Part shown: positions 8,455 through 36,144 of the stretch, one piece after another | How positions within the stretch are numbered: the stretch's first letter is position 1 | How the letters are laid out: every line of letters starts with the position of its first letter | Assembly (NCBI GenBank): GCA_964639885.1 | Contig: CAZXEH010000005.1 | Coordinates: 16,278-80,277, forward strand | Reading direction: 5' to 3' | Length of the DNA: 64,000 nt | From: an uncultured Caldisericales bacterium | GTDB lineage: Bacteria; Caldisericota; Caldisericia; JAAYUI01 | Position numbers and translations under genes: made by a program | The notes under the pieces: generated by a model | What the model was told of the DNA's origin: nothing | Database searches by the model: none | The model's input: the letters and a program-made list of their open reading frames with translations, nothing else

Positions 8455-10611
8455 TCAATATGCTTCTTTGTACCAGTAGGCAGCGTTCCAACTTGTAGGC
8501 TTATTGGAACCGGTTGGCTTGTAGTTCTCAAGGTCGAGTGGGCAAACCGTTATAGCCACTGGATTGTACATTGGAAGATGCGGAAGTTCTTCGCACCATA
8601 TTTCAAGTTCGCGATCAATCAGGTCCTGGAGTTTTGCATCTGGGATTTCCTTGTCCATCTCCATGCAAATCTTCTCATGTTCTACTCCACCCTTCCAACC
8701 AACAAGGTTTTGTCCTGCCCAGTTATTGTCGGCAGTAGGAATCTGCTTTTCCATGAACAGGTCAGCCGAAGGTCTGATCGGATTAGAAACCCAGGCGAAT
8801 GTTATCATCTCCCACTCATGCCTTACAAGGCTCTGCCCAAGAAGCTCCTTGCTTGTAACAGGTGTTGGGATTATTTTGAGGCCGATACGGCTGTACATGA
8901 TCTTCATCTGCTCAGCCATTTGTATGGCCGATGGATTCTCTGATGATGTTTTGAACTTGAAGCTGAATGGCTTGCCCGGATCGCCGTTAAGGCACCTGAT
9001 CATCTCGCCACCAACCTTGGTAAGCTTCCAGCCCGCCTCTTCAAGCAACTGTTCAGCTTTTTTCGGGTTGTACTCATATCTTTTGATTTTGTCGGGATTG
9101 TAGAACTTTGACTTTGGAGACATCCAGCTGTCGGCTACCGTATAGAGACCCTGGTTTACAACCTTGTTCATCTCTTCCCTGTCCAGGGCGTAAAGCATAG
9201 CCTGCCTGACCCTCTTGTCACCAAAAACCCACTTGAGTCCTGGCTTGTCTGGTTCTTTTGGGTCCTTGTCAAACAGGTTGAGATCAACGTGACTCCACTG
9301 TGTGGCATCAACAATAACGATCTTGTAGTCAGGGAGTTTGTCTTTCAGGTCTTTGTAGTCGTTTGGAGTAATGCCGGCACAATCGACCGATCTCGCTTCA
9401 AGATTGAGTCTGACGGTATTCTGATCTGACATGAAACGGACGATAATCTTTCCGATCAACGGTTGTGAATAGATTGCATATGGATTTGGCGTAAATTCGA
9501 GGTGATCGCCCCTGTCCCATTTTGCAAGTCTGTATGGGCCATTGTTGAAATTGATGAAGTCTTCCCTCGTGTTGAAATCCTGCGGAGCCGTAAACAAATC
9601 CTGTTCAAAAACGGACTTGTAGGTATCGCCCCATCCCCATGACGCATAAGTGTAGACTTCGTTATATGTGATTTCAACCGTGTATCTGTCAATCTTTTTG
9701 ATGTTGTCAACTTTCCAGATGCCTGATTTCGAGATTGCCTGGATGCGTGGTACAACTGAAACTCTCATGGAGAAAAGGTAATCATCAGCAGTCACTTCGT
9801 GAAGTTTTTGAGCTTCACCGTCATACATTGGACAATTGTAGAGACCTTTTCTGATGTGGTATGTGACAACTTCCTTGTCGCGACCAGAGGCTGGGTCTTT
9901 GATTATCTTTATGTCACCATTATCAACTGAGGGAACCCTTGTCAGCTGGAACGGGTAAAGTGTTGCGTCATCTCCAAACGAAACGTCTCCTCCCCAGGAT
10001 GCGAAAGTGTTGATGTATGAGGTAGCCATGGCTGAGGTTGTATAAGGGTTAAGGGTTTCCGGTTCGTTTGTTGTAACGATTGTCAGCTGCTGGTTCGGGT
10101 CGGTGTTGGGCGGATATTTGACGTGATAGGCAAGGTAGGCCAGTTCGGCATAAGTCATTGGCTTGTCCCATGCCGTAAGTCTGCCTTTCTTGTACGTGAG
10201 CAGGTTGTATTTGGGCCTGTAGGCAAGGTTGAAGTAGGGGACGTATTCTTTTGGAATGGTCAGTTCGTCATTGCTCATACACCAGGCAACATCGTCAAAC
10301 TGTTTGACATCTTCAGCCCATTTGCCATTGTCAATGACAGCCTTGATGATTGCTGCCCTGGCAAGTGGTTTTGTTGCATCAAGCGTCGAACTTTTGCCAA
10401 GAACATTGTCTAGAGTGCTCACAATTGTTGCACCGTCGACATCCTTGTCCCAGAGACCCTTGTCGGCTTCAGGCATCACCTTCTCAGAAACCAGCTTCTC
10501 AATGTATTTCTGTGCCCAGTGAGGTCTGTCCAGAGCTGAGACGGACTGGCAAACGATGGCAAAAATGGCCACAATTGCCAAAATTGTAAGTGTCAATGAA
10601 ATTTTTCTCAT
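8455..10611 (-). CDS. oppA: ABC transporter substrate-binding protein, family 5 (OppA-like), N-terminally extended paralogue 2
   Basis: Start moved to the ATG at 10609-10611 (MRKISLTLTILAIVAIFA signal), preceded by a GGAGG RBS. Shares motifs with paralogue 1: RVPSVDNGD, GGEMIRC, AWVSNPIRP. Confidence 0.8.
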   Translation of the reverse strand: MRKISLTLTILAIVAIFAIVCQSVSALDRPHWAQKYIEKLVSEKVMPEADKGLWDKDVDGATIVSTLDNVLGKSSTLDATKPLARAAIIKAVIDNGKWAEDVKQFDDVAWCMSNDELTIPKEYVPYFNLAYRPKYNLLTYKKGRLTAWDKPMTYAELAYLAYHVKYPPNTDPNQQLTIVTTNEPETLNPYTTSAMATSYINTFASWGGDVSFGDDATLYPFQLTRVPSVDNGDIKIIKDPASGRDKEVVTYHIRKGLYNCPMYDGEAQKLHEVTADDYLFSMRVSVVPRIQAISKSGIWKVDNIKKIDRYTVEITYNEVYTYASWGWGDTYKSVFEQDLFTAPQDFNTREDFINFNNGPYRLAKWDRGDHLEFTPNPYAIYSQPLIGKIIVRFMSDQNTVRLNLEARSVDCAGITPNDYKDLKDKLPDYKIVIVDATQWSHVDLNLFDKDPKEPDKPGLKWVFGDKRVRQAMLYALDREEMNKVVNQGLYTVADSWMSPKSKFYNPDKIKRYEYNPKKAEQLLEEAGWKLTKVGGEMIRCLNGDPGKPFSFKFKTSSENPSAIQMAEQMKIMYSRIGLKIIPTPVTSKELLGQSLVRHEWEMITFAWVSNPIRPSADLFMEKQIPTADNNWAGQNLVGWKGGVEHEKICMEMDKEIPDAKLQDLIDRELEIWCEELPHLPMYNPVAITVCPLDLENYKPTGSNKPTSWNAAYWYKEAY

Positions 10612-10700
10612 GAAACTCCTTCCATTTGTCAAAGTGTATTTGTGCCCTTTTGATTTACAGGAAGGATAATAAACCGTTTAATATTAAAATGGAATAGCCT

Positions 10701-11633
10701 CTACCAGACCGGAACAGGGATGCTCCAGTGTCCGGCAATGCGGATCTCCGGTGACAACCTGACATTGAACCTGTCGTAGACAGTGTCTGCAACCATTTTC
10801 ATAAGCATCAGTGCCTCTTTTGAATCATTTGAGCCAAGGTTTACCAGAAAATTAGCGTGGAGTTTTGAAATTTCGATCCCACCAACACCCTTGCCCTTCA
10901 GGCCAGCATCTTCGATGAGCTTTCCTGCGAAGCCAGCAGGAGGATTTCTGAAGGCGCATCCTGCATTCGGCAGGTTGTAAGGTTGTGACCCTGTACGGTA
11001 GCCCTTGAGGATGTTGACTCTGGAAACCAGTTTTTCATACTCGGTTTTAGCCAGCCTGAATCTTACCTGGTCGATCATTCCGCCTGACTGGAGAGCGATT
11101 GAAGTCCTGTAGTCAAATCTCATCTGGTCATGATCCAGAACGTGTTTTTCACCTGTGGGCGAGATGTAGCCTACCTCAAAAACCGCACGGCTGATGTAGT
11201 TGTTGTGGGTGCCGGTGTTCATTGCCACAGCACCGCCAACTGTCCCAGGAATCCTTGTCAAAAATTCAATTCCTTCAAGGCTTCTTGCAATCGAGAGGTC
11301 GACGGCTTCATCAAGCAAAAAACCTGAACCACACCTGACAGAATCATCATCTGCCTCGACCCACCTGAACTTTTCTCCGATGCAGGCAACCACTCCACGA
11401 ACGCCAAGATCGCCAACGAGCAGGTTTGTGCCTGAACCTATTGTCAGAACCGGTATGCCGTTTCTGGAACAGAACCTGAAAATTTCGGCAACATCATCGG
11501 AATCTTCAGGAAAAACCAAGGCATCTGCCGGGCCACCGAGTCTGAATGATGTGTGCAGATGCATCGGTTCGCCAAAGAGAACCTTACCCCTGATTATCGA
11601 AGTGATCGAAGACAGGGTCTGATTGATGATCAT
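10701..11633 (-). CDS. murB: UDP-N-acetylenolpyruvoylglucosamine reductase MurB
   Basis: FAD-binding N-terminal motifs (GGPADALVFPED...IPVLTIGSGTNLLV) and a MurB C-terminal domain. Sits in dcw context. Confidence 0.85.
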   Translation of the reverse strand: MIINQTLSSITSIIRGKVLFGEPMHLHTSFRLGGPADALVFPEDSDDVAEIFRFCSRNGIPVLTIGSGTNLLVGDLGVRGVVACIGEKFRWVEADDDSVRCGSGFLLDEAVDLSIARSLEGIEFLTRIPGTVGGAVAMNTGTHNNYISRAVFEVGYISPTGEKHVLDHDQMRFDYRTSIALQSGGMIDQVRFRLAKTEYEKLVSRVNILKGYRTGSQPYNLPNAGCAFRNPPAGFAGKLIEDAGLKGKGVGGIEISKLHANFLVNLGSNDSKEALMLMKMVADTVYDRFNVRLSPEIRIAGHWSIPVPVW

Positions 11634-11649
11634 ATGAAATGAATGCTGC

Positions 11650-13059
11650 TCAGGCCAGGAGATCGAGAATCGGTTGCGCCAGTTCTCTCACGGTTTGTGG
11701 GCCAGAGAAGTAGATGATCTCGTCTTTTTTTATGCCAGCTTTTACCTGTGCAGGGACATCGCCGATCTTTGGAACCAGAACAATGTCCATGTCAGGGTTT
11801 GCTTCCTTTATTGTCTTTGCCAGCACGTTGATGTCTGAACCCCAAAGGTTGTCCTCGCCCGACGGATTGATCTCGGTTATGATCACTCTGTTGGCATAAC
11901 GCACGGCTGCGCTGTATTCCTTCGGAAGATAGAACACCCTTGAGTATCTCATCGGCTGAAGCACAAGGCAGATCGGGTTTTCCGGGTAGTAAGACCTGAT
12001 GGTTTCAAGCCCTCTGATCATTGCAGTTGGATGGTGCGAGTAATCATCGTATACAGGATGCCCGCCTGAAACGCCCATGAGTTCGATTCTCCTCTGTGTT
12101 CCAGGAAAATTAGCAAGCTCAGGTATTGCATCCTTCGGCTCGATTCCAACCTTGACCAGCGAGGCGATAGAGGCAAGCGCATTGATAACATTGTGTGCAC
12201 CTGGAACCTGTAGCTTCATCTTGCCGGCAAGCTCGCCTTTCCAAAAAACGTCAGTCTCAGAGCAGAGATTGTAGCCATCACGGAAAAATTTCGTCTCTCC
12301 AGCTCTCAGATGCGCCTGAACCGATCTTCCAAAGGTGATGACATTTTTGAAGTGCGTGAGGTTGATTGAAAGCACGTTCTTGTCGTCAGCATTCAGGATT
12401 TGCCATCCACCCCTGTCAAGCGACTGCTGTGCATACTTTTCCATGTCAGCTACAAGGTTCTTGATGTCGAAATTGAAGTTTTCCATGTGGTCGTTGTCGA
12501 TGTTGCCAACAATTGCAATGTCGACATCGAAGTGAAGGAAGCTGTGGTCGTGTTCATCTGTTTCGATGATGAAGACCTTGCCGTCTGTCCATTCGGCCTG
12601 GTCTTTGTTTGCAAGGTAGGGTGAGCCGAAATAGTAAGTTGGGTTCAGACCCTTCTTCATGCAGATGTGGGTTGCCATGGCTGTCGACGTGGTTTTTCCA
12701 TGTGTTCCAGCAACGCCGATTACAGTTTTCCCCCTTGTGAGCATCTTGAATGCGTCTGCCCTGTGATATATCGGGATTCCGCGTCTTCTCGCCTCTTCAA
12801 GCTCAGGGTTGTTCTGCCTGATCGCCGTTGAATAGACAATCATGACTGGATTTTTCAAATGTTTTGGATCGTTTCCATTTCCAACAACCATGCCCTTGTT
12901 TATCAAGTCCTTGATTGCAGGCCTGTCAAAATCAGTGTCGGAGCCGGTAACCTTGAAGCCTTTGCCCCAATAGAGCAAGGCCAGTCCACGCATTCCGGCA
13001 CCACCAATGCCGACCAGATGAATCTCTGATCCGGCAGGAAGCGAATTGATGTCGTTCAT
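11650..13059 (-). CDS. murC: UDP-N-acetylmuramate--L-alanine ligase MurC
   Basis: HLVGIGGAGMRGLA N-terminal motif and Mur ligase ATP-binding GTHGKTTST. Start set to the ATG at 13057-13059 with a GGAGG RBS. The ORF-track start further upstream would overlap murG. Confidence 0.85.
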   Translation of the reverse strand: MNDINSLPAGSEIHLVGIGGAGMRGLALLYWGKGFKVTGSDTDFDRPAIKDLINKGMVVGNGNDPKHLKNPVMIVYSTAIRQNNPELEEARRRGIPIYHRADAFKMLTRGKTVIGVAGTHGKTTSTAMATHICMKKGLNPTYYFGSPYLANKDQAEWTDGKVFIIETDEHDHSFLHFDVDIAIVGNIDNDHMENFNFDIKNLVADMEKYAQQSLDRGGWQILNADDKNVLSINLTHFKNVITFGRSVQAHLRAGETKFFRDGYNLCSETDVFWKGELAGKMKLQVPGAHNVINALASIASLVKVGIEPKDAIPELANFPGTQRRIELMGVSGGHPVYDDYSHHPTAMIRGLETIRSYYPENPICLVLQPMRYSRVFYLPKEYSAAVRYANRVIITEINPSGEDNLWGSDINVLAKTIKEANPDMDIVLVPKIGDVPAQVKAGIKKDEIIYFSGPQTVRELAQPILDLLA

Positions 13060-25979: not shown

Positions 25980-26071
25980 AAGGGCTTTCAAGGGAAAGCT
26001 CAAAGAAAGAGGACAGGCACATGGATGCCTGCAACGCCCCATTGAAAATAAATGCAGGGCAGAGGAGAAAA

Positions 26072-27274
26072 ATGAAAACAACGGCAATCATGCCGGCCTA
26101 CAACGAAGAAGTGGGCATAGCGGAAGTCATCAAGGCGGTCAAGGCTGCAAAACTTGTTGACGAAATCATCGTCGTCTCGGACGGCTCAACAGACAAGACT
26201 GTTGAAATAGCCAAGACTTTTGACGGCGTAAATGTTATCGAGCAGAACCCGAACAAGGGCAAGGCTGCCGCGATGCACCTTGGTGTCTCAAACACAGACG
26301 CCGACGTGCTCCTTTTCATCGACTGCGACCTGATCAGCCTCACACCGGAAATGGTTGACGGACTGGTGAAGCCAATTCTTGACGATGTTGCTGATGTCAC
26401 AATGGGCATCTTCCAGGGTGGAAAGTTCTCCACCGACTGGGCGCAGAAAACCTTCCCGTTCCTCACAGGCCAGAGAGGCATGAAGAAATCCGTCTGGGAC
26501 GGCGCTGACATCGACGTCAAGAGCGGTTACGCAGTTGAAGTCCACCTTACCAAGTACATGGCCAAGGAAAATCTCAGGGTTGAAAACGTAATCCTTGCCG
26601 GTTGCTCACAGTACCTCAAGGAACAGAAGACCAAGGGCAAGGTGCTTGAAGGCTTCGGCAGAAGGCTCAAGATGACCTGGGAAATCGCAAAAGCACTTTT
26701 TATGCCGGACTTCGACGACATAGCCGAGATCTTCGCACCAAAGAGAAGGAGTGAAGATTCAGGCTCAGGCGAGGACAGGGAAAGAAGACCGCGCTACAAT
26801 CGCGACCGTGATGGTGGCGGAGACCGTTTCAGAAAGCCGAGAGGCAATTTCGACAGGAAACCGTGGGTTGCCGATGGCGAATTCAACAAGTCATGGCGCG
26901 ACAAACGTGATGATGAAAGACGCGAAAGAAGACCCAGAAGGGATGACGCCGAAGGTTCAACTCCATCTGAAGGCGGAGAAGGCGGAGAAGAGAGAAGACC
27001 AGCAAGACGCGAGGGTTTCTTCCCAAGGCGTGACGACTCGGGTGAAGGTTTCAGAAGAGGCCCAGGCAGACCAAGGAAGAACTTTGGCGACAGCGAAGGC
27101 GGAGACAGACCACCAAGAAGAGAAGGCGGATTCTTCAAGAGCCGTGATGGCGGAGACCGCAAGCCGTTCTTTGGCAACCGCGACGGTGGCGAGCGCAGGG
27201 GTCCAGGCAGACCGAGAAAATACGGCGACGACAGACCTTTTGGCGACAGACCACCAAGAAGACCAAGAGACTAA
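26072..27274 (+). CDS. Family 2 glycosyltransferase fused to a roughly 180-aa Arg/Asp/Gly/Glu-rich low-complexity C-terminal tail
   Basis: Start set to the ATG at 26072 (AGAGGAG RBS), giving MKTTAIMPAYNEE. The GT-A fold has a DxD-type motif (FIDCDL). From about residue 223 the sequence turns into repeated RD, RG and FG units including two RGPGRPRK repeats. Confidence 0.75.
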   Translation: MKTTAIMPAYNEEVGIAEVIKAVKAAKLVDEIIVVSDGSTDKTVEIAKTFDGVNVIEQNPNKGKAAAMHLGVSNTDADVLLFIDCDLISLTPEMVDGLVKPILDDVADVTMGIFQGGKFSTDWAQKTFPFLTGQRGMKKSVWDGADIDVKSGYAVEVHLTKYMAKENLRVENVILAGCSQYLKEQKTKGKVLEGFGRRLKMTWEIAKALFMPDFDDIAEIFAPKRRSEDSGSGEDRERRPRYNRDRDGGGDRFRKPRGNFDRKPWVADGEFNKSWRDKRDDERRERRPRRDDAEGSTPSEGGEGGEERRPARREGFFPRRDDSGEGFRRGPGRPRKNFGDSEGGDRPPRREGGFFKSRDGGDRKPFFGNRDGGERRGPGRPRKYGDDRPFGDRPPRRPRD

Positions 27275-28793: not shown

Positions 28794-28928
28794 ATGGACA
28801 AGGACAAACCAGCTGCCTCAAAAGAAGAGAAGGAAATAGCCGTCGAGTTCAAGACCGACAAGGCCATCGCCGAAAAAATCTTTTACAACAACTATGAGAT
28901 TTTCATGATGACACGTGGGCATTGGTAG
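28794..28928 (+). CDS. Hypothetical 44-aa small protein (MDKDKPAASKEEKEIAVEFKTDKAIAEKIFYNNYEIFMMTRGHW)
   Basis: ATG with GGAGG RBS at 5-nt spacing and its own -35/-10. Too short for the ORF track. Its 3' end runs into the AT-rich island. Confidence 0.25.
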   Translation: MDKDKPAASKEEKEIAVEFKTDKAIAEKIFYNNYEIFMMTRGHW

Positions 28929-28978
28929 AATTATTTATGTATTCTGTTGTTAATGGCTCTCCAAGTTAGTTTATGAGA

Positions 28979-30622
28979 TCAAAGATCGTTAAGTAACTCT
29001 TCAATATCTTTTCTATGTTGTTGCGTAATTTTTTTATTATTTTTTGCGTTTGCGATTCCTTCAACAATAGCTTTGTGATTTAGTTGAAATTTATTACAGT
29101 ACATGCTTAATTTCTTTGAGATAAATTCTTCTTCAGTGTAATATTCATTATTAATTAAAGCATACAAATACCTTAATTCATTAATTGGAAATCGCTCACC
29201 GTAGTCAATATATCCATTATGAGTATCATCAAATATTATTGGTTTAATATCAGCAAAGAAACATAATATAACTACTGGTTTGTAAAACGGCAATTGTAAT
29301 ATATTGTGAATATAATTATAATTGATGTTATATTTATATATATAAGTTCGAGATAAACTAAAATTGATTTTAGTATATTCATCTAGATGTAATAAATCAA
29401 TATATTCACGCCTATAAAACAAAACTTCTAAGAAGCGCAATTCATCGTAAATATAGATATATTTGAAATTTGTTATAATATCATTTATTATGGGATCAGT
29501 AACTTTATCGACGGACACATTCATTAATGATCCCTCTAGAAATCGAAATAATGAAGATTCAAACCCCAAATTATTAACAATCAATAATACAGTTGTCTCT
29601 CTAACAATGTTTCTAGCCCACTGCAATATTCTGGACGTTAAAATATTCCCATATTTATCATTTAGCAAGTAATTTGATTGAATGTGGACGTTGTATCCAA
29701 TCTTTCTTATAACTTGTCTACATAAATCAGAATTAAACCTTAATTGATTTGATTCGAGTGAAAATTTTGATGAGATAATAATTGATTCTGATTTATTCAA
29801 TATTACATCAAGCAAATCCGTATTAGTGACATCGTTGATGTTAATATAATCAATAATTTCATCTATCAATGTGCCTAAAACCTTATAGTATGTGATTAGA
29901 CTACCATCATCTTTATTAATCTTAATATCTTTATCAATTCTTTGTAATAAATTAATACAATAAGTAACTATCTTATTATATTCTATCATATTAAAATATT
30001 TTTGAATATTTATTTTAATGCCAGATGTAATAAATATTAATGCTAATTCCATTATATCAATATAGTTCTTATTTACATCTATAGTATTCACTTCAAATAT
30101 TAGTATTGGTGATACATAGATTCTAAGTCGGTATATTATAAAAAAAGTTATTGTCCCAAGTGCAAATAAAGAGAAAAGAACTGCCACTGTGCATATAAGA
30201 TTAATAATTACTCGTAAGAAATAATAACCGTTTGGCATGAATACAATAAATAACAAGCCGGTTATAGCCAGAAAAATCGAAATTACGCCCAGAAGTATAA
30301 ATCTATTAATTAGTTCGTCGCTATACATCATTCTTTTAAGCGGTTCATTTACTCCTAATAATTCTGAAACTTTTAAATTAGGAACAACTGTATACAACAA
30401 CGCCAAACCTATCCCCAACAAAGCCCCCATCGTTTGTGCTATCGTCGAGAAAAGATAAAGCGCAGGCGTGTAAAGATCATTGAATTTGTCCTGGTAGAAT
30501 CTTGCAACGACGCTGATGACCACAAAAATGGCTATGACGAAAAAGATTACGAAAGGCCACTTGATTTTGTTGTTCAGTCTGTCGCTGTTCTCTTTTGCCT
30601 TTGGATTGGTCTTGTCTCCCAT
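28979..30622 (-). CDS. Hypothetical membrane protein (547 aa): four N-terminal TM helices plus a roughly 380-aa cytoplasmic domain; encoded in an AT-rich island
   Basis: Uninterrupted ORF inside a segment whose base composition is visibly much more AT-rich than the roughly 50% GC flanks. Codon usage is rich in N, I, K and Y. No recognisable catalytic motif. Confidence 0.6.
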   Translation of the reverse strand: MGDKTNPKAKENSDRLNNKIKWPFVIFFVIAIFVVISVVARFYQDKFNDLYTPALYLFSTIAQTMGALLGIGLALLYTVVPNLKVSELLGVNEPLKRMMYSDELINRFILLGVISIFLAITGLLFIVFMPNGYYFLRVIINLICTVAVLFSLFALGTITFFIIYRLRIYVSPILIFEVNTIDVNKNYIDIMELALIFITSGIKINIQKYFNMIEYNKIVTYCINLLQRIDKDIKINKDDGSLITYYKVLGTLIDEIIDYININDVTNTDLLDVILNKSESIIISSKFSLESNQLRFNSDLCRQVIRKIGYNVHIQSNYLLNDKYGNILTSRILQWARNIVRETTVLLIVNNLGFESSLFRFLEGSLMNVSVDKVTDPIINDIITNFKYIYIYDELRFLEVLFYRREYIDLLHLDEYTKINFSLSRTYIYKYNINYNYIHNILQLPFYKPVVILCFFADIKPIIFDDTHNGYIDYGERFPINELRYLYALINNEYYTEEEFISKKLSMYCNKFQLNHKAIVEGIANAKNNKKITQQHRKDIEELLNDL

Positions 30623-30874
30623 GCACCCATTCTACAAACACTCTTCTTCTTGTCAAATCCGACAGTTTCACCATAACTATTTATAAGTATTCGTAGCATC
30701 TTTAAATATTATTCTTATACTTATTGCTTTCTATTTTGAATTTATAGTCATTCTTACTTTCTTATTATCATTATAAATTATCATAATATGCTTTTTAGTA
30801 TTTAATGGAAACTTTAATTTACTTTTAGTGATACTGTTGACAAAAAGCCAGACTTGCCCATTATTTAGATTGGA

Positions 30875-33178
30875 ATGAACCGCATTTTACAGCTTGCAAC
30901 CGTTGTGGCAATCCTGGCTTCAGGGGCATGGGTGGACAGGGGAAATCCTGGCCGTTCCGGCACCTTCCCGGACAATGTCAGCCCGAAGTTCTACGACACG
31001 CCGCGATTTGCAAGAAAACTTCTCCCAATCGAAGGAAACGACCAGGTGACCGTCGACGTGAGCCCGGCTGTGGCAAACGGCACCATGGTGATCGTGAGCA
31101 AGGAAGGCAGGATTTATGCGCTTTCCACAGCCGACCTCTCGATGAAGTGGTCGAACGACCTCAAGGTTGTCGGCACCAGCGCCAGCTTTGTGGCCAGCCC
31201 GGCAATTGATGAAGGAAAAATCTACGTTCCCTACTACTGGATCAGCCCCGAACCCTCGTCGACAAGCAAACCAATCGCCGGAATCTGCTGCTACAACCTC
31301 GAAGACGGCAAGCTGGACTGGCGCACCGGCGACAGCAAATCCCTGATCGAATCAACCCCTTTGATCGACGGCAACAAGATTGTTTACGGCTCAAGCGACC
31401 GTCACGTTTATGCAATCGACAAGACCAGCAAAGGCGCACCTTTTGAGGGATGGAACCCAATCGAGCTGACAGGCCAGGTCAAGGCTGGAGTTGCAAAGCT
31501 CGATGACGGCAGATACGTCGTCGCCTGCCAGGGTCAACCGCACACCGACTCGGAATACACCAAAAACCTCTACTGTCTCAACCCAAACGACGGCAGCATC
31601 AGCTGGGGCCCGCTCCAAACCAAGGGTTCAATCGATTACACACCTGCAACTTCGGGCGACTACATTTTTGTCACTTCCTATGGCTACATAATCGGCAGCA
31701 ACACTGACGCAACCGGCACCCTTTACTGCTTTGACCGCGACCGCAACCCAAACGAGATGTGGAATTTCCCGTTCAAGGGCAGAATGACCGGTAGTCCGGT
31801 GACAAACGGAAAATACGTGGTTGCTGCAGACACCGCCCAGGAGATGAGGGTTTTTGCCCTCGATGGAGATAATTTTTCACTCCAGGCAGAATACGTAACA
31901 GATAACATCGTCATGAACTCGCCAGTCATCATTGACCACTACGTCTACGTTGGAACCAGATCAGGCAATCTGTCGATCTACGATCTCGACGCAAAAAAAG
32001 TGGTTGGCCACGACAACGAAACCGGAATCGTCCAAAACCTGAACGTCGGTGGAAATGAAGCATATCTGATGGGTTCGCCAATTGTCTGGAATGATGCTCT
32101 TTTTGCTGTCAACAACATCGGCCATGTTTTCAAATTCGAGATGAAACCAAATATATCGGTGACCTTTGAAAAAACTGAACAGACAGTGAAAAAGGGCGAG
32201 CAGTTCAGGTTCAGGGCGGTTGTCAAGAATGAACGTGAGCAGAAACTTCCAAAATCAGTAAAAATAACACTTCGCACCGATGCTGACTGGCTCTCAGCCG
32301 ACACAGACACAACCGTTTCGATCATCGACGCCGGGCAACAGGCCATCATTGAATTTTCTGGCACCGCAGAAAAGGCAACCTACGATCATCTCATAGCAAA
32401 AGTCATCATCTCCAGTGACAACCCGGAAATAACCTTTGAACCGGTAAACCTCATCCTGTTTGTAACCGAGAAAAATCTTCAGATAACCTACATCGGTGGC
32501 TCATCAACAATCTGGGATGACGAGCTTGTCAGGACGATGAACATCACAAACACCGGCAACACACAGATTTTGTTTGATGTCATAACGGATATCGGCGTTA
32601 CAATGATCTCCCCGAGCAGATCCATCTTGCTCAACCCTGACGCCTCCATTGAACTAAAATTTGAAATTGATCCAAAAGCGTGTGGCTTTGACAAGCCTGT
32701 CGAGCTCAAGTTCAGCTTCAGGAGCGACGGTGAGGACCTGGCCAATTACATCCTCAAATGCACCCTCAAACGCTCAATGAAGATAATAAAGCTGGCAATC
32801 GGCAAGCCAAAGGCAACCGTTGACGACACTGAAATCAATGTTGACCCGCCACCGTTCATAAGCAAAAACATCACTATGGTTCCACTCAGATTTGTGTCGG
32901 AAGGTCTTGGGCTAAAGATTGAATGGGTGGCGGACATCAAAACCATCATCGTTGATCTCGGCAACGAGAACTACCTGAGGCTGCTTATCAACTCGCTGAA
33001 AGCCTACATTGACATGCCTGATGGCTCGATCAGGGAAGTTCCGCTTGCTTCAGCACCACAGATCGTGAAAGGGAGAACGTTCGTCCCGCTTCGCATCATC
33101 TCCGAAATGTTCAACTGTGATGTGGCCTGGGATGCCAAGACAAAGGGGATAACGATCACAAAGAAGTTGAAACCTTAA
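30875..33178 (+). CDS. Secreted PQQ-like beta-propeller protein with Ig-like domain and two C-terminal CAO-N-like domains
   Basis: Signal peptide MNRILQLATVVAILASGAWV. Repeated propeller blades such as GRIYALS and KLDWRTGD. C-terminal motifs ITMVPLRFVSEGLGLKIEW and GRTFVPLRIISEMFNCDVAWD. Confidence 0.7.
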   Translation: MNRILQLATVVAILASGAWVDRGNPGRSGTFPDNVSPKFYDTPRFARKLLPIEGNDQVTVDVSPAVANGTMVIVSKEGRIYALSTADLSMKWSNDLKVVGTSASFVASPAIDEGKIYVPYYWISPEPSSTSKPIAGICCYNLEDGKLDWRTGDSKSLIESTPLIDGNKIVYGSSDRHVYAIDKTSKGAPFEGWNPIELTGQVKAGVAKLDDGRYVVACQGQPHTDSEYTKNLYCLNPNDGSISWGPLQTKGSIDYTPATSGDYIFVTSYGYIIGSNTDATGTLYCFDRDRNPNEMWNFPFKGRMTGSPVTNGKYVVAADTAQEMRVFALDGDNFSLQAEYVTDNIVMNSPVIIDHYVYVGTRSGNLSIYDLDAKKVVGHDNETGIVQNLNVGGNEAYLMGSPIVWNDALFAVNNIGHVFKFEMKPNISVTFEKTEQTVKKGEQFRFRAVVKNEREQKLPKSVKITLRTDADWLSADTDTTVSIIDAGQQAIIEFSGTAEKATYDHLIAKVIISSDNPEITFEPVNLILFVTEKNLQITYIGGSSTIWDDELVRTMNITNTGNTQILFDVITDIGVTMISPSRSILLNPDASIELKFEIDPKACGFDKPVELKFSFRSDGEDLANYILKCTLKRSMKIIKLAIGKPKATVDDTEINVDPPPFISKNITMVPLRFVSEGLGLKIEWVADIKTIIVDLGNENYLRLLINSLKAYIDMPDGSIREVPLASAPQIVKGRTFVPLRIISEMFNCDVAWDAKTKGITITKKLKP

Positions 33179-33181
33179 AAC

Positions 33182-34207
33182 TCAGGCTTCTACAACAATC
33201 TTTGTTTCACCTTCCAGTGTCTGACCAATCCACTCGGCATTGACGCCTGCTTTTTTGAGCTTGAACACGCACTCCTCTGCTTTGTCCATATTTATGAAAG
33301 CGAGCAGCCCACCGGAAGTTTGTGCGTCTCCAAGCAGATTTGTCCACTCGGCAGAAACATTTTCCCCAATCTGAAGACGATGCTCGACCGATGAGATGTT
33401 TTCCATCAGAAGTGGGCAGGTATAGTTTTTTGCTGCCTCAAAGGCGTCTTTGAACAGTGGAATTTTTGAAACATTGATTTTTGCGCCAATTTTTGATTCC
33501 TCAAGCAGCTCGTAAAGCGAAACGGCAAAGCCAAAGCCTGTGACATCGGTTGCACACCGGCAGTCGTACTGGGCAAGGATTCGTGAAGCTCTGCAGTTTA
33601 TTTGAGTCATCGACTGAATACACTGGTTGAAATCGTATTTCTCGCGGGCTGCGTAGAGGATGCCGGTTCCAAGGGGCTTTGTCAGAATAATAGCCTGTCC
33701 TGGTCTGCCTGCGTTTGACATCCTGATGTCACCGGGTTTTGCAGTCCCAAAAACTGAAAGGCCAAACTTTACTTCCTGATCCTTTGCCGTGTGACCGCCG
33801 ACGATGAGCACGTTGTGTTCGATGGCAGCCAGAGCACATCCGCGAAGGATTTCGGCAAGTTTTGGCGTTTCAATTTCTCTGGGGAAAAGGGCAATGTTGA
33901 GCGCAAGCAAAGGCTGGCCACCCATTGCACAGATGTCTGAAACCGAGTTTGCAAAAACGATTCTGCCAAATGTTTCAGGATCATCGACTATGGGGGCAAA
34001 TACATCAACCGTGAAAATCCCCAGCAGGTCGTCAGTGAGTTTGTAGACAGCAGCATCGGATTTTGAAAGGTCGCCGGTCAGCAGCCGTTCATCAGTCATT
34101 TTTGGCAGGTTGGACAAAAGGTCGGCGAGGTCACCCGGACCCCATTTGCTTGCTCAGCCGGCACATCCAGCCCATTTTGTGAGTTTGAAGACTTCGTCTC
34201 TCTCCAT
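33182..34207 (-). CDS. selD: Selenide, water dikinase SelD; selenocysteine-containing form with in-frame TGA (Sec) at 34154-34156
   Basis: The track ORF (33182..34117) begins at a TTG. Reading upstream in the same frame gives ...KMTDERLL preceded by ASKWGPGDLADLLSNLP, then TGA, then MERDEVFKLTKWAGCAG. The assembled N-terminus L-T-K-W-A-G-C-A-G-U-A-S-K aligns with E. coli SelD L-T-Q-Y-S-H-G-A-G-C-G-C-K, so the TGA sits at the catalytic Cys/Sec position. Downstream, DAAVYKL...FAPIVDDPETFGRIVFANSVSDICAMGG is typical SelD. Confidence 0.75.
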
Positions 34208-34212
34208 CTTAT

Positions 34213-36144
34213 TTATGGCAGGATAACACAAGAGGCTTCATCATTCAAGACGATCCTCAGGGCGTTCCCTCTCTGCGAGACTGTGCCTGATCCCTCAAAA
34301 ATCCTGTTCGGGCCTGACCATATTCCTTCCGTGAACATAACGGCTCCGTTTTCAAAAAACTGAAGAGGCTGGCTCTCAGAGAGGAGGTTTATTGATCCGC
34401 TGGAAGGGTCAACAACGTAACAGCCATTGGTTTTCTTTATGATTATCTGGCCAAGGTCGAGCAGGGGGTTGAAGGCTTTTGTCGAGTAAACCTGCTCGCA
34501 GTTGAGCGACCAGAGTTCCACTCCGTCGACGAAACACTTCAGGATGCCTGAAGGATTGTAGAAAATCTGGCACATCTTGTCCTGGGTTGAAATAAATCCA
34601 AGTCCCCTGAAGCCCGGATTTGGGTTTGGCTGGACAAAGGTGTTGTTTTTATCGAGAGGGGTCGATGTGCCCGAATTTGGATCGATGAGATAATGGTTTT
34701 CGGAGTTAAGGGATTCTGCAATCCAGACCTGTTCGTTCTCGTTCCACGAGATCGAGAGCGGTTCTTCGGCAATTTTTGTCTGCCATTCGGCCTCGCCTGA
34801 ACCGGTGTTGAATCCAACAATGTCAGTGCCTTTGAAAAAACAGATGATTGCCGGCTGGACATTCTTCACCCCGCCGACCTGCCACGAACCATCGAGATTC
34901 CAGGCATAACGCCTGCCGTAGACACCGACACAGGTTCCATCTGCATTGAAAAGGCCAACGCCAAAATCGCTGGTTTCACCCATGCGTCTGAAATGGAGTC
35001 CCTGCTGAGCCTTGCCCAGCTTGAAAACCTTCATGTTTTCAGTGTCGAATTCACACAGGGTGTTGTCGACGATTGAGAAGTAGCGGGTGGTTGATCCGTC
35101 CTGGGACTGGATTTGTCTGGCAAATTCAGCGACAAACATCCTGGGATCCTTGACTTCCACCTGCTTGAGAGACTGGGCATCATATCCGGCTATTATCAGG
35201 GCATCCTTTTTCATACCTGAAAATACCAGCGTTCCACCGTAGAGTGAAAGGTCAAGAATGGTGTCATGGGGAGGCAGTTTTGCCTGAATGGTGTGGCCTG
35301 AATTGTCAGTGACCTTCAGGAACCCGTCCTGTATGTAGGAGTTGAAATAACCTCCGTTTGCAAACCACTCATGAGCCGATGATTCAATGTTTGAAGCGGT
35401 GACAATCATTGACAACTTTGCACCGGGATGGAGCCAGACATTCTGACGCTTGAAAAGGAGTGGGATGGAAACCATGTCTCCGCCAACCTTTGCTGTCAGA
35501 TTTTTTGCGTCTGCAAACGAGACCGGCGTGACGCCAACGAGTTCGTCACCCCTGTAAATCTGGATGCCTTCGGGGATCGAGGTGATGTTGATTGAATCGC
35601 CCTGGCTCGAGCCTGTTTTTGGGGTTTTCCCAAAGAACACTTCAACCTTTTTCTTCTCGTCAAATTCAAGGTCAATTGGGCCGTATTTTTTGGCCTGACC
35701 GTCAAGGTTGAGGATAAACGTATATACACCTGGAGGCAGGTGAACATCCACAGGCGTTTTGCCAAGTGGCTGCGAAATATCAGATGCAACGCTGACCTGT
35801 GCGCCTTGCGGATTCGAGGTGAAACTGACAACCGGTTCTGTTCCGCAAACCACCTTTGTCACTTCACCCTTTGAAATGGAAAAGGTGCCTTTGAGTTCCA
35901 TTTTTGAATCGGCAACTCCTTGCATCAGACCCTTGTATTCATGGCTACCTGTGGTCAAAGGAATTGAAAATTCTGTGCCATTGCCATAGCTGATGCCGTC
36001 TATCTCAAGATCAATGGCTTTTTTGCATTCAAGGCTTAGGGTTCCCTTATCTGGAGCGAGCATGACAACACTGGCAACCACGAGTGCTGCTGCAACCAGC
36101 ACAACAACAATGGCTGGAACTACCCATTTCAGTTTTGCGGCCAC
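34213..36144 (-). CDS. Membrane-anchored protein with PEGA-like domains and a C-terminal beta-rich domain
   Basis: N-terminal TM helix WVVPAIVVVLVAAALVVASVV. PEGA-like segments such as GVTPVSFADAKNLTAKVGGD and PLGKTPVDVHLPPGVYTF. 643 aa. Stop lies 5 nt before the selD ATG. Confidence 0.55.
   Translation of the reverse strand: MAAKLKWVVPAIVVVLVAAALVVASVVMLAPDKGTLSLECKKAIDLEIDGISYGNGTEFSIPLTTGSHEYKGLMQGVADSKMELKGTFSISKGEVTKVVCGTEPVVSFTSNPQGAQVSVASDISQPLGKTPVDVHLPPGVYTFILNLDGQAKKYGPIDLEFDEKKKVEVFFGKTPKTGSSQGDSINITSIPEGIQIYRGDELVGVTPVSFADAKNLTAKVGGDMVSIPLLFKRQNVWLHPGAKLSMIVTASNIESSAHEWFANGGYFNSYIQDGFLKVTDNSGHTIQAKLPPHDTILDLSLYGGTLVFSGMKKDALIIAGYDAQSLKQVEVKDPRMFVAEFARQIQSQDGSTTRYFSIVDNTLCEFDTENMKVFKLGKAQQGLHFRRMGETSDFGVGLFNADGTCVGVYGRRYAWNLDGSWQVGGVKNVQPAIICFFKGTDIVGFNTGSGEAEWQTKIAEEPLSISWNENEQVWIAESLNSENHYLIDPNSGTSTPLDKNNTFVQPNPNPGFRGLGFISTQDKMCQIFYNPSGILKCFVDGVELWSLNCEQVYSTKAFNPLLDLGQIIIKKTNGCYVVDPSSGSINLLSESQPLQFFENGAVMFTEGIWSGPNRIFEGSGTVSQRGNALRIVLNDEASCVILP

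Follow-up and report, generated by a model that had tools for sequence, protein, structure and literature searches.

A resident core-locus gene of Caldisericales with a native-composition head and a probably swappable AT-rich tail, from an apparently undescribed family of membrane proteins

Introduction

In polymorphic toxins of the Rhs, CdiA and LXG types, a host-like N-terminal part is fused in frame to a swappable, AT-rich C-terminal part across a sharp junction, and alleles are exchanged by recombination. The pilin genes pilA and pilE, and hsdS, occupy core loci and join a conserved N-terminal hydrophobic recombination anchor to a hypervariable remainder; their alleles are old within species and likely kept by negative frequency-dependent selection. 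In agr, a hypervariable block is edged by conserved coding sequence and exists as discrete alleles per species, the variation affecting a peptide signal together with its membrane processing and sensing parts. Antiphage membrane effectors, such as RexB, PycTM, the transmembrane (TM) effectors of CBASS, KwaA-like four-TM proteins and Avs, combine a membrane module with a variable cytoplasmic helical sensor, and occur as single AT-rich genes in variable hotspots between core genes. Here we describe gene X, which resembles each of these systems and differs from each. It lies at 28979..30622 on the minus strand of a 64,000-nucleotide stretch of DNA (hereafter the window) from an uncultured Caldisericales bacterium (NCBI GenBank assembly GCA_964639885.1, contig CAZXEH010000005.1, positions 16,278 to 80,277), and encodes a protein of 547 aa.

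With the Rhs, CdiA and LXG proteins, X shares the host-like head fused in frame to an AT-rich tail, the sharp junction and what appears to be allele exchange by recombination. It differs in lacking a delivery domain, a toxin domain and an immunity gene that co-varies with the tail; the tail, of ~470 aa, contains two TM helices and is otherwise predicted to be cytoplasmic. The core locus, the conserved hydrophobic N-terminal anchor, the hypervariable remainder and the apparently old alleles recall pilA, pilE and hsdS, and the same mode of selection is likely. However, X has neither a class III signal peptide nor a pilin fold, and its variable part is predicted to be intracellular; its four TM helices, and the cytoplasmic position of both its K-rich N-tail and its C-domain, set it apart from the pilins. 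The target-recognition-domain repeats of HsdS are also absent. Like agr, X has a hypervariable block with conserved coding sequence at its edges, although it is a single gene with no signal peptide gene and no kinase. The proposed build of X and its single-gene setting are closest to those of the antiphage membrane effectors, from which it differs in showing no sequence or fold relation, no match to an NTPase motif and no partner gene.

The original prediction, made from the sequence alone, saw in X a horizontally acquired accessory gene on an AT-rich island. Our analysis instead describes X as a resident gene whose head has the native composition and whose tail is swappable between strains. 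We regard this evolutionary and architectural description as very likely. It draws on sequence comparisons that reveal conserved synteny, an intragenic composition switch, the junctions themselves, purifying selection on the head, old allelic heads and recurrence across the family. Head-tail cassette polymorphism is a known kind of pattern, built here on a family that appears to be undescribed.

Results and discussion

A composition switch inside one reading frame

In 300-nt windows, the GC content drops to 0.20-0.39 over ~28.9-30.9 kb, compared with 0.45-0.59 on either side. In 1-kb bins the segment scores 0.25 and 0.35, and the remaining bins of the 64 kb all fall between 0.435 and 0.546. 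The dip at ~28.93-30.87 kb is the sole one in the window. Computation therefore bears out the abrupt shift that had been read from the codons by eye, and GC is not uniform across the region. Just two open reading frames (ORFs) belong to the segment: X, which is a single minus-strand frame of 547 codons with an ATG start, as predicted, and a small ORF of 44 aa.

X is a real coding region. Given the base composition of the AT-rich part, the probability that a random codon is a stop is 0.095, and the stop-free run of 369 AT-rich codons has a chance probability of ~1e-16. The other five frames across X contain 27-75 stops each.

Upstream, the intergenic region between X and the divergent PQQ-propeller gene (30623..30874) has a GC of 0.29-0.36, in agreement with the AT-rich upstream region claimed before. 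The island is nevertheless not uniform. Codons 1-80 of X have a GC content at third codon positions (GC3) of 0.575, a native value beside the 0.49-0.64 of neighbouring genes, and GC3 is 0.235 in codons 81-178 and 0.214 in codons 179-547. The AT-rich DNA thus comes in two pieces, the tail (28931-30388) and the intergenic region (30623-30874), with a native-looking head between them. We refer to codons 1-78 as the conserved head (30389..30622, minus strand); it comprises the K-rich cytoplasmic N-tail, TM1 and TM2 with the motif TPALYxFSxxAQTMGA, and is near-invariant in four Caldisericales alleles. The hypervariable tail, codons 79-547 (28979..30388, minus strand; GC ~0.26, GC3 ~0.21), comprises TM3, TM4 and a predicted cytoplasmic all-alpha domain of ~380 aa. 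Such a clean natural switch within one gene, from a GC3 of 0.6 to 0.2 at a recombination junction, could serve to test why hypervariable genes are AT-rich, whether through the donor pool, escape from GC-biased gene conversion or direct selection.

Synteny of X across diverged Caldisericales lineages

The composition could also be read as that of a recent foreign gene: an AT-rich donor would have supplied all 1.9 kb of the AT-rich segment, which came to lie between lpdA and the PQQ-propeller gene by insertion. The sharpness of the GC drop, at the only AT-rich spot in 64 kb, agrees with this reading, as does the absence of homologues among GTDB species representatives, where a scan with the head motifs returned no relative; the exact protein is not recorded elsewhere. 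The locus in related organisms argues otherwise. A word-indexed protein search returned three homologues of X, all in Logan assemblies, and the order lpdA, small ORF, X, PQQ-propeller gene, selD holds in the lineages of all three. The flanking DNA of these lineages, L001 and L002-L005 (L numbers denote loci on other contigs), is only 68-77% identical to the window. Since X occupies the same locus at this distance, it is a resident gene of the Caldisericales clade and not a strain-specific insertion.

Several further observations weigh against recent insertion. Strong purifying selection acts on the first 80 codons, whose GC3 is native; other species share the promoter; and the switch in composition falls within the ORF. 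No integrase or transposase was found in the segment and no convincing flanking (att-like) repeat around it, as the original prediction had noted, and no tRNA was found in the 20-40 kb part of the window; insertion mediated by an integrase and an att site was rejected for want of such a repeat or tRNA. We therefore consider a recent foreign insertion very improbable, and the earlier idea of a horizontally acquired single gene is not borne out by the syntenic locus, the native head and the break inside the ORF. Homologues in conserved core contexts with a known housekeeping role had been named as an observation that would refute that idea; the homologues of X do sit in such contexts, but no housekeeping role is known for them. 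The case also carries a caution, in that the rule "AT-rich single gene = recent insertion" can mislead.

The small ORF (28794..28928, plus strand), which is convergent with X and preceded by a GGAGG ribosome-binding site, lies between lpdA and X, just downstream of lpdA. It was recovered by tblastn in L001-L008, including L008, which has no X. Its C-terminal motif NNYE[IV]F[LM][WM]x[RQ][CG]HW is kept in all Caldisericota loci examined, its DNA is 94% identical between the window and L006, and it matched no family. The stop codon of X lies 20-53 nt from it in L001 and L002. In the window, L006 and L007 the small ORF forms the 3' edge of the variable cassette; it belongs to the genome backbone and provides the 3' homology anchor for exchange. 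Between it and X lies a variable 3' spacer (28929..28978) that is part of the exchanged cassette; the window and L006 become homologous again at ~28930, the point from which L007 diverges too.

Two further loci show what else the position between lpdA and the PQQ-propeller gene can hold. L007, an uncultured Caldisericales bacterium metagenome-assembled genome, is a close relative of the window (LpdA 99% identical at the protein level; DNA 90.5% identical over 9.5 kb). Its homology with the window stops exactly past the small ORF, where an AT-rich sequence of another, unclassified kind takes over; 490 nt further on the contig ends. L008, a "Caldisericia bacterium" from a sludge digester (LpdA 84% identical), has in this slot a different AT-rich gene (9661-10221, minus strand; GC 0.28-0.33 over ~9500-10500), which encodes a highly acidic coiled-coil protein of 186 aa with only weak matches to SMC-like coiled coils. 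Taken together, the slot appears to be a hotspot for AT-rich variable genes beyond the family of X.

Contigs end at or inside X-family genes in L006, L007, L018/L019, L022 and L025, as would be expected from strain heterogeneity at the locus. The proposed polymorphism would explain the assembly breaks seen at this locus in Caldisericales.

Exchange of the tail between strains

In a protein alignment of four Caldisericales alleles, residues 1-78 are almost invariant and the rest can barely be aligned. The closest comparison is with L006 and L017. Over ~1.5 kb of the PQQ-propeller gene (30900-32382) the window differs from these by a single mismatch, and L017 is 100% identical to the window out to 33306. 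Towards X, identity between the window and L006 passes through 0.97, 0.93, 0.90, 0.93 and 0.88 in successive 100-nt bins, and beyond codon ~78 it is at background (0.54). From 28931 to 30359 there is no DNA similarity between the window and L006/L017. Homology with L006 restarts at the stop of the small ORF (~28930), with 94% identity over the last 287 nt of that contig. The exchanged cassette therefore measures ~1.46 kb (28931-30388), and around it lies a tract of at least 2.2 kb with raised divergence, which also takes in the AT-rich intergenic region. Such a tract is what homologous recombination leaves behind when it imports an old allele along with the flanks linked to it.

The conserved head is under strong constraint, with a ratio of nonsynonymous to synonymous divergence (dN/dS) of 0.02-0.04, compared with 0.03-0.075 for lpdA. 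In the head, the two co-specific alleles show a synonymous divergence (dS) of 0.60, an imprecise estimate resting on 62 codons, and the dS of lpdA to the sister lineage L007 is 0.21. Because of this difference, the co-specific alleles would either be older than the split from L007 or have been imported from further away.

The same cassette structure is seen in an independent lineage, formed by L018 and L020 (proteins P0005 and P0006). Their heads are 83% identical at the DNA level, their tails show no similarity, and the 3' end and downstream sequence are again 80% identical. At the protein level, P0004, P0005 and P0006 have ~200 N-terminal residues in common and then diverge, and P0014, P0028 and P0035 have ~80 N-terminal residues in common. 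Chimeric assembly was rejected as a source of these patterns, given that head and tail are joined in frame in the same way in independent assemblies and lineages.

A local mechanism of diversification, by silent cassettes, a shufflon or a diversity-generating retroelement, was also considered and is unlikely. The alleles are unalignable and not point-diversified, and neither a second AT-rich segment nor a repeat of the tail occurs anywhere in the 64-kb window, of which no systematic scan for a reverse transcriptase or recombinase was made.

Our model of the locus is as follows. The head, with host codon usage, consists of TM1 and TM2 with the core motif YxFSxxAQTMGA and, in some lineages, of all four TM helices. 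The tail, with a GC3 of ~0.2, is an interchangeable cassette made up of the remaining membrane domain and the ~380-aa, predicted cytoplasmic all-alpha domain. Strains exchange this cassette by ordinary homologous recombination, with one crossover in the head or upstream of it and the other in the small ORF or the end of lpdA. In this way strains with an essentially identical flank on the PQQ side have come to carry old tails that cannot be aligned.

An apparently undescribed protein family

The family of X was revealed by an exhaustive hidden Markov model (HMM) search over 1.84 billion cluster representatives. The family is rare: the search returned 45 proteins with E<1e-3, of which 37 have E<1e-10. 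Word-indexed searches with the full-length or the head alignment added almost no members, probably because they were swamped by low-complexity words. Full-length members measure ~460-640 aa, mostly 540-640. Their common layout begins with a variable periplasmic loop 1, followed by the TM2 motif TPALYxFSxxAQTMGA, in which Y56, F58, Q63 and T64 are invariant family-wide and S59, A62, G66 and A67 are at least 90% conserved. Further shared elements are the cytoplasmic loop EPxKRLLxxD, TM3, TM4, YxNP, a DYxELxLL helix and an LxxxDI helix. The window protein carries the TM2 motif, EPxKRLLxxD, TM3, TM4, YxNP and DYxELxLL within a length of 500-640 aa, and thus belongs to the family.

Beyond residue ~255 almost no residue is conserved across the family, and in pairwise BLASTP comparisons the tails give essentially no significant similarity, although the heads of such pairs can be 60-88% identical. 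The same comparison revealed no donor sequences shared among tails. Of the 10 loci for which DNA was available, 9 have heads with a GC3 of 0.35-0.63 and tails with a GC3 of 0.10-0.30. Each lineage switches at its own junction, which is codon ~60-80 for Caldisericales and codon ~180 for L013, L018 and L020. The GC3 of ~0.2 in tails from hosts of 42-52% GC could reflect escape from GC-biased gene conversion in divergent alleles that no longer recombine, or derivation from AT-rich mobile pools.

In L013, the family member adjoins a gene for an archaeal-type GatD, the pair occupying 11518-12897 (minus strand) and 9851-11503 (plus strand); GatD scores 497 bits against an NCBIfam cutoff of 310. On account of this neighbour, the family probably extends beyond Bacteria into Archaea.

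Database searches agree with the original prediction that the protein has no recognisable family. In Pfam, the best hit of the window protein was Zona_CL1 at E=0.027, below the cutoff, and when 27 members were scanned singly no Pfam family was matched by more than one of them. NCBIfam gave no match for the window protein and PHROGs a best E value of 2.1. PADLOC-DB v2 gave no match for the window protein, and one of the 27 members hit PycTM at E=0.077. A sequence-profile search of the PDB with the head alignment returned nothing, and fold searches returned generic helical bundles and solenoids only. A literature search for transmembrane antiphage proteins with a conserved N-terminus and a hypervariable C-terminus found nothing relevant. 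The head, with its four TM helices, its TM2 rich in small residues and its charged "P.(K/R)RLL..D" loop, resembles DUF2254-type predicted membrane proteins, which we take as a lead only; hmmscan reported no DUF2254-type family for the window protein (E up to 10) or for the 27 members (E up to 0.1). By these searches the family appears to be undescribed.

These properties of the tails could also arise with no balancing selection at all. The tail might be a weakly constrained, fast-evolving spacer or scaffold that has drifted towards AT by escaping GC-biased gene conversion or codon selection, with recombination at its edges producing mosaics. Its lack of conserved residues would be consistent with this, as would the uniform GC3 of ~0.2 in unrelated lineages, which share no tails indicating a common donor pool, and the existence of one member with a tail of native composition. 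Against this, every allele keeps its length (547-636 aa) and integrity despite a stop probability of ~9.5% per codon, and wholly different tails occur in backgrounds that differ by one mismatch in ~1.5 kb of PQQ-side flank. Moreover, the allelic heads show ~3x the synonymous divergence of the sister-lineage split, for which long co-existence or repeated import would be needed. We therefore judge drift alone to be unlikely, and favour a polymorphism that is actively maintained.

Topology, structural model and promoter

The AlphaFold2 (AF2) model of X is all-helical throughout and begins with four long helices. Its predicted local distance difference test (pLDDT) score is 80-94 up to residue ~280, and this confident part coincides with the conserved core of the family. 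TM1 spans residues 21-44 (30491..30562, minus strand), as placed by the AF2 helix and the topology count. The other three helices rest on AF2 and the family alignment: TM2, residues 51-82 (30377..30472, minus strand), is the family's most conserved element, TM3, residues 103-128 (30239..30316, minus strand), follows the amphipathic EPxKRLLxxD segment, and TM4 with its cytoplasmic extension covers residues 133-170 (30113..30226, minus strand). The four N-terminal TM helices of the original prediction are thus supported by the model.

Across 27 family members, the mean number of K and R residues is 4.3 in the N-tail, 5.3 in loop 2 and 4.8 after TM4, and 0.8 in loop 1 and 0.3 in loop 3. By the positive-inside rule these counts give an N-in, C-in topology, from which the large C-domain is predicted to be cytoplasmic, and the ~380-aa cytoplasmic domain described before finds support family-wide.

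This topology bears on the likeness to polymorphic toxins. X does show the evolutionary marks of an Rhs/CdiA/LXG-type toxin or addiction module, in that a sharp junction separates its conserved head from a swappable, AT-rich tail. Yet the head is predicted to be a four-TM, N-in/C-in anchor and not a secretion or delivery domain, and no toxin domain was found. There is also no co-varying downstream ORF, the stop of X being followed by a spacer of 20-53 nt and then by the conserved convergent ORF. A toxin module is, in our estimation, the least probable of the alternatives considered.

X is preceded by a sigma-70-type promoter, TTGACA-16-TAGAAT (30629..30656, minus strand), which matches the consensus at 11 of 12 positions and is conserved in L001, L002 and L006. 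It ends 6 nt 5' of the ATG; no Shine-Dalgarno sequence is present. In 8 of 9 bacterial family loci a similar -10 box precedes the start codon by 6-8 nt. Upstream regions with a hexamer so placed are those of the window, L001, L002, L006, L015, L018, L020, L021 and L022. The short distance from promoter to ATG, the missing Shine-Dalgarno sequence and the recurrent -10 box suggest that X is expressed from a leaderless mRNA, perhaps as a family trait. The adjoining small ORF, unlike the leaderless-type X, uses a canonical GGAGG.

A possible role as a membrane sensor-effector

Because unalignable, full-length and intact tails occur in an otherwise identical background, we infer that negative frequency-dependent selection on a specificity function keeps the polymorphism. 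The tail would then be the specificity domain, facing the cytoplasm, and more likely to bind or sense than to act as an enzyme, as it is predicted to be cytoplasmic and all-alpha and has no invariant residues. The invariant head may supply the output, perhaps as an oligomeric channel or as an element that perturbs the membrane; its polar, small-residue TM2 motif could serve in helix packing, oligomerisation or channel formation. X as a whole could act as a one-protein sensor-effector against phages or other mobile elements. Conflict with such elements is favoured because invading elements would be the likeliest agents to act on a cytoplasmic recognition domain.

The genomic surroundings of the family were compared in seven independent contexts, too few for statistics: the Caldisericales locus, L013, L015, L020, L021, L022/L025 and L023. 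In all seven the family gene stands as a single-gene locus among housekeeping or metabolic neighbours. The neighbour sets include SMC and GatD; Lcl_C, EamA and a PPDK-like protein; a SurA-like protein, GreA and an aminoacyl-tRNA synthetase; a ribosomal and ECF cluster, an HD-domain protein and Clp; and cation ATPases, glyoxalases and a GyrI-like protein. In L021, genes for Schlafen/AlbA_2 (SLFN_AlbA_2) and PLDc_2 proteins lie ~4-9 kb from the member, and in L023 an HD-domain gene adjoins it. The enrichment near defence islands that the original prediction had proposed to look for was not seen.

Some of these neighbours raise the alternative that the polymorphism is balanced for envelope variation or for kin or self recognition, for example through the regulation of a polysaccharide or S-layer pathway. 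Variation of this kind would serve escape from phages that use a surface receptor, or discrimination between strains, and genes that are both AT-rich and hypervariable are a typical feature of O-antigen and capsule loci. The Caldisericales neighbours of X include GT2 (a glycosyltransferase), PEGA and Cu_amine_oxidN1 proteins. In L002-L005 an extra gene for an 863-aa GH114/Esterase_PHB protein stands between X and the PQQ-propeller gene (L002 3554-6145, minus strand). An Esterase_PHB-type gene also adjoins the family member in the unrelated contig L020 (1985-3901, plus strand) and is 33% identical to that of L002; the recurrence of an esterase beside the family in L002 and L020 may be a coincidence or a functional link. 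The variable domain, however, is predicted to be cytoplasmic and not surface-exposed, X bears no glycosyltransferase, polymerase or flippase signature, and the contexts of other lineages (ribosomal/ECF, GreA/aminoacyl-tRNA synthetase, cation ATPases, SMC/GatD) are unrelated to the envelope. A role in envelope variation or kin recognition is accordingly improbable, and conflict with mobile elements remains the reading we prefer.

Several observations weigh against this preferred reading. The seven contexts contain no canonical defence gene and no recognisable defence island. Scans of viral contigs, INPHARED phages and PLSDB plasmids returned no homologue, so that no link to mobile elements is seen. 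Just two co-specific alleles were recovered, in addition to the unclassified sequence of L007, and the age of their heads depends on the imprecise dS given above. In the AF2 model the tail, the putative sensor, has low confidence (pLDDT 40-70). Finally, P0040 (L021 9577-11436; NCBI GCA_040961635.1) has a GC3 of 0.60-0.73 throughout. Because this member is of native composition along its whole length, AT-richness and swapping do not appear to be obligatory for the family; P0040 may be a stable, non-swapping form.

In light of this evidence, we hold with moderate confidence that the best explanation as a whole is a population-level cassette polymorphism in a membrane sensor-effector engaged in conflict with mobile elements. 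The assignment of a defence function to X specifically, as a one-protein sensor-effector with an abortive-infection or exclusion-like action, is tentative and falls short of an even chance. A bolder version appears doubtful, namely that the family constitutes undescribed one-protein membrane immune receptors with a fixed four-TM effector head and interchangeable AT-rich cytoplasmic sensor tails. Such receptors would have a new fold and a new membrane effector, would swap their tails at a core-genome locus and would probably occur in both domains of life.

If the polymorphism is as we describe, a new family would join the short list of core loci at which microbial populations maintain numerous old alleles that cannot be aligned with one another (pilins, HsdS, Rhs/CdiA tips and agr), and would do so in the uncultivated phylum Caldisericota and probably in archaea too. 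The invariant membrane module of ~80-250 aa would be a candidate effector, and hundreds of natural tails would be candidate specificity domains.

Neighbouring genes

The two genes on either side of the locus are those named in the original prediction. The lpdA gene matches TIGR01350 at 447 bits, against a cutoff of 409, and the other neighbour encodes a PQQ-like beta-propeller/Cu_amine_oxidN1 protein.

Two minor observations concern the wider surroundings. A GT2 glycosyltransferase gene (26021-27274, plus strand) encodes a C-terminal tail of ~190 aa in which R, D, G, E and P are extremely abundant. This tail is RGG/RDD-like and probably disordered, and it is conserved in L008. On the other side, in a block that takes in 33182-34117 and 34213-36144 (both minus strand), selD, which encodes selenide, water dikinase, adjoins genes for large PEGA and PQQ-like predicted envelope proteins, and the order of this block is conserved across the Caldisericales loci.

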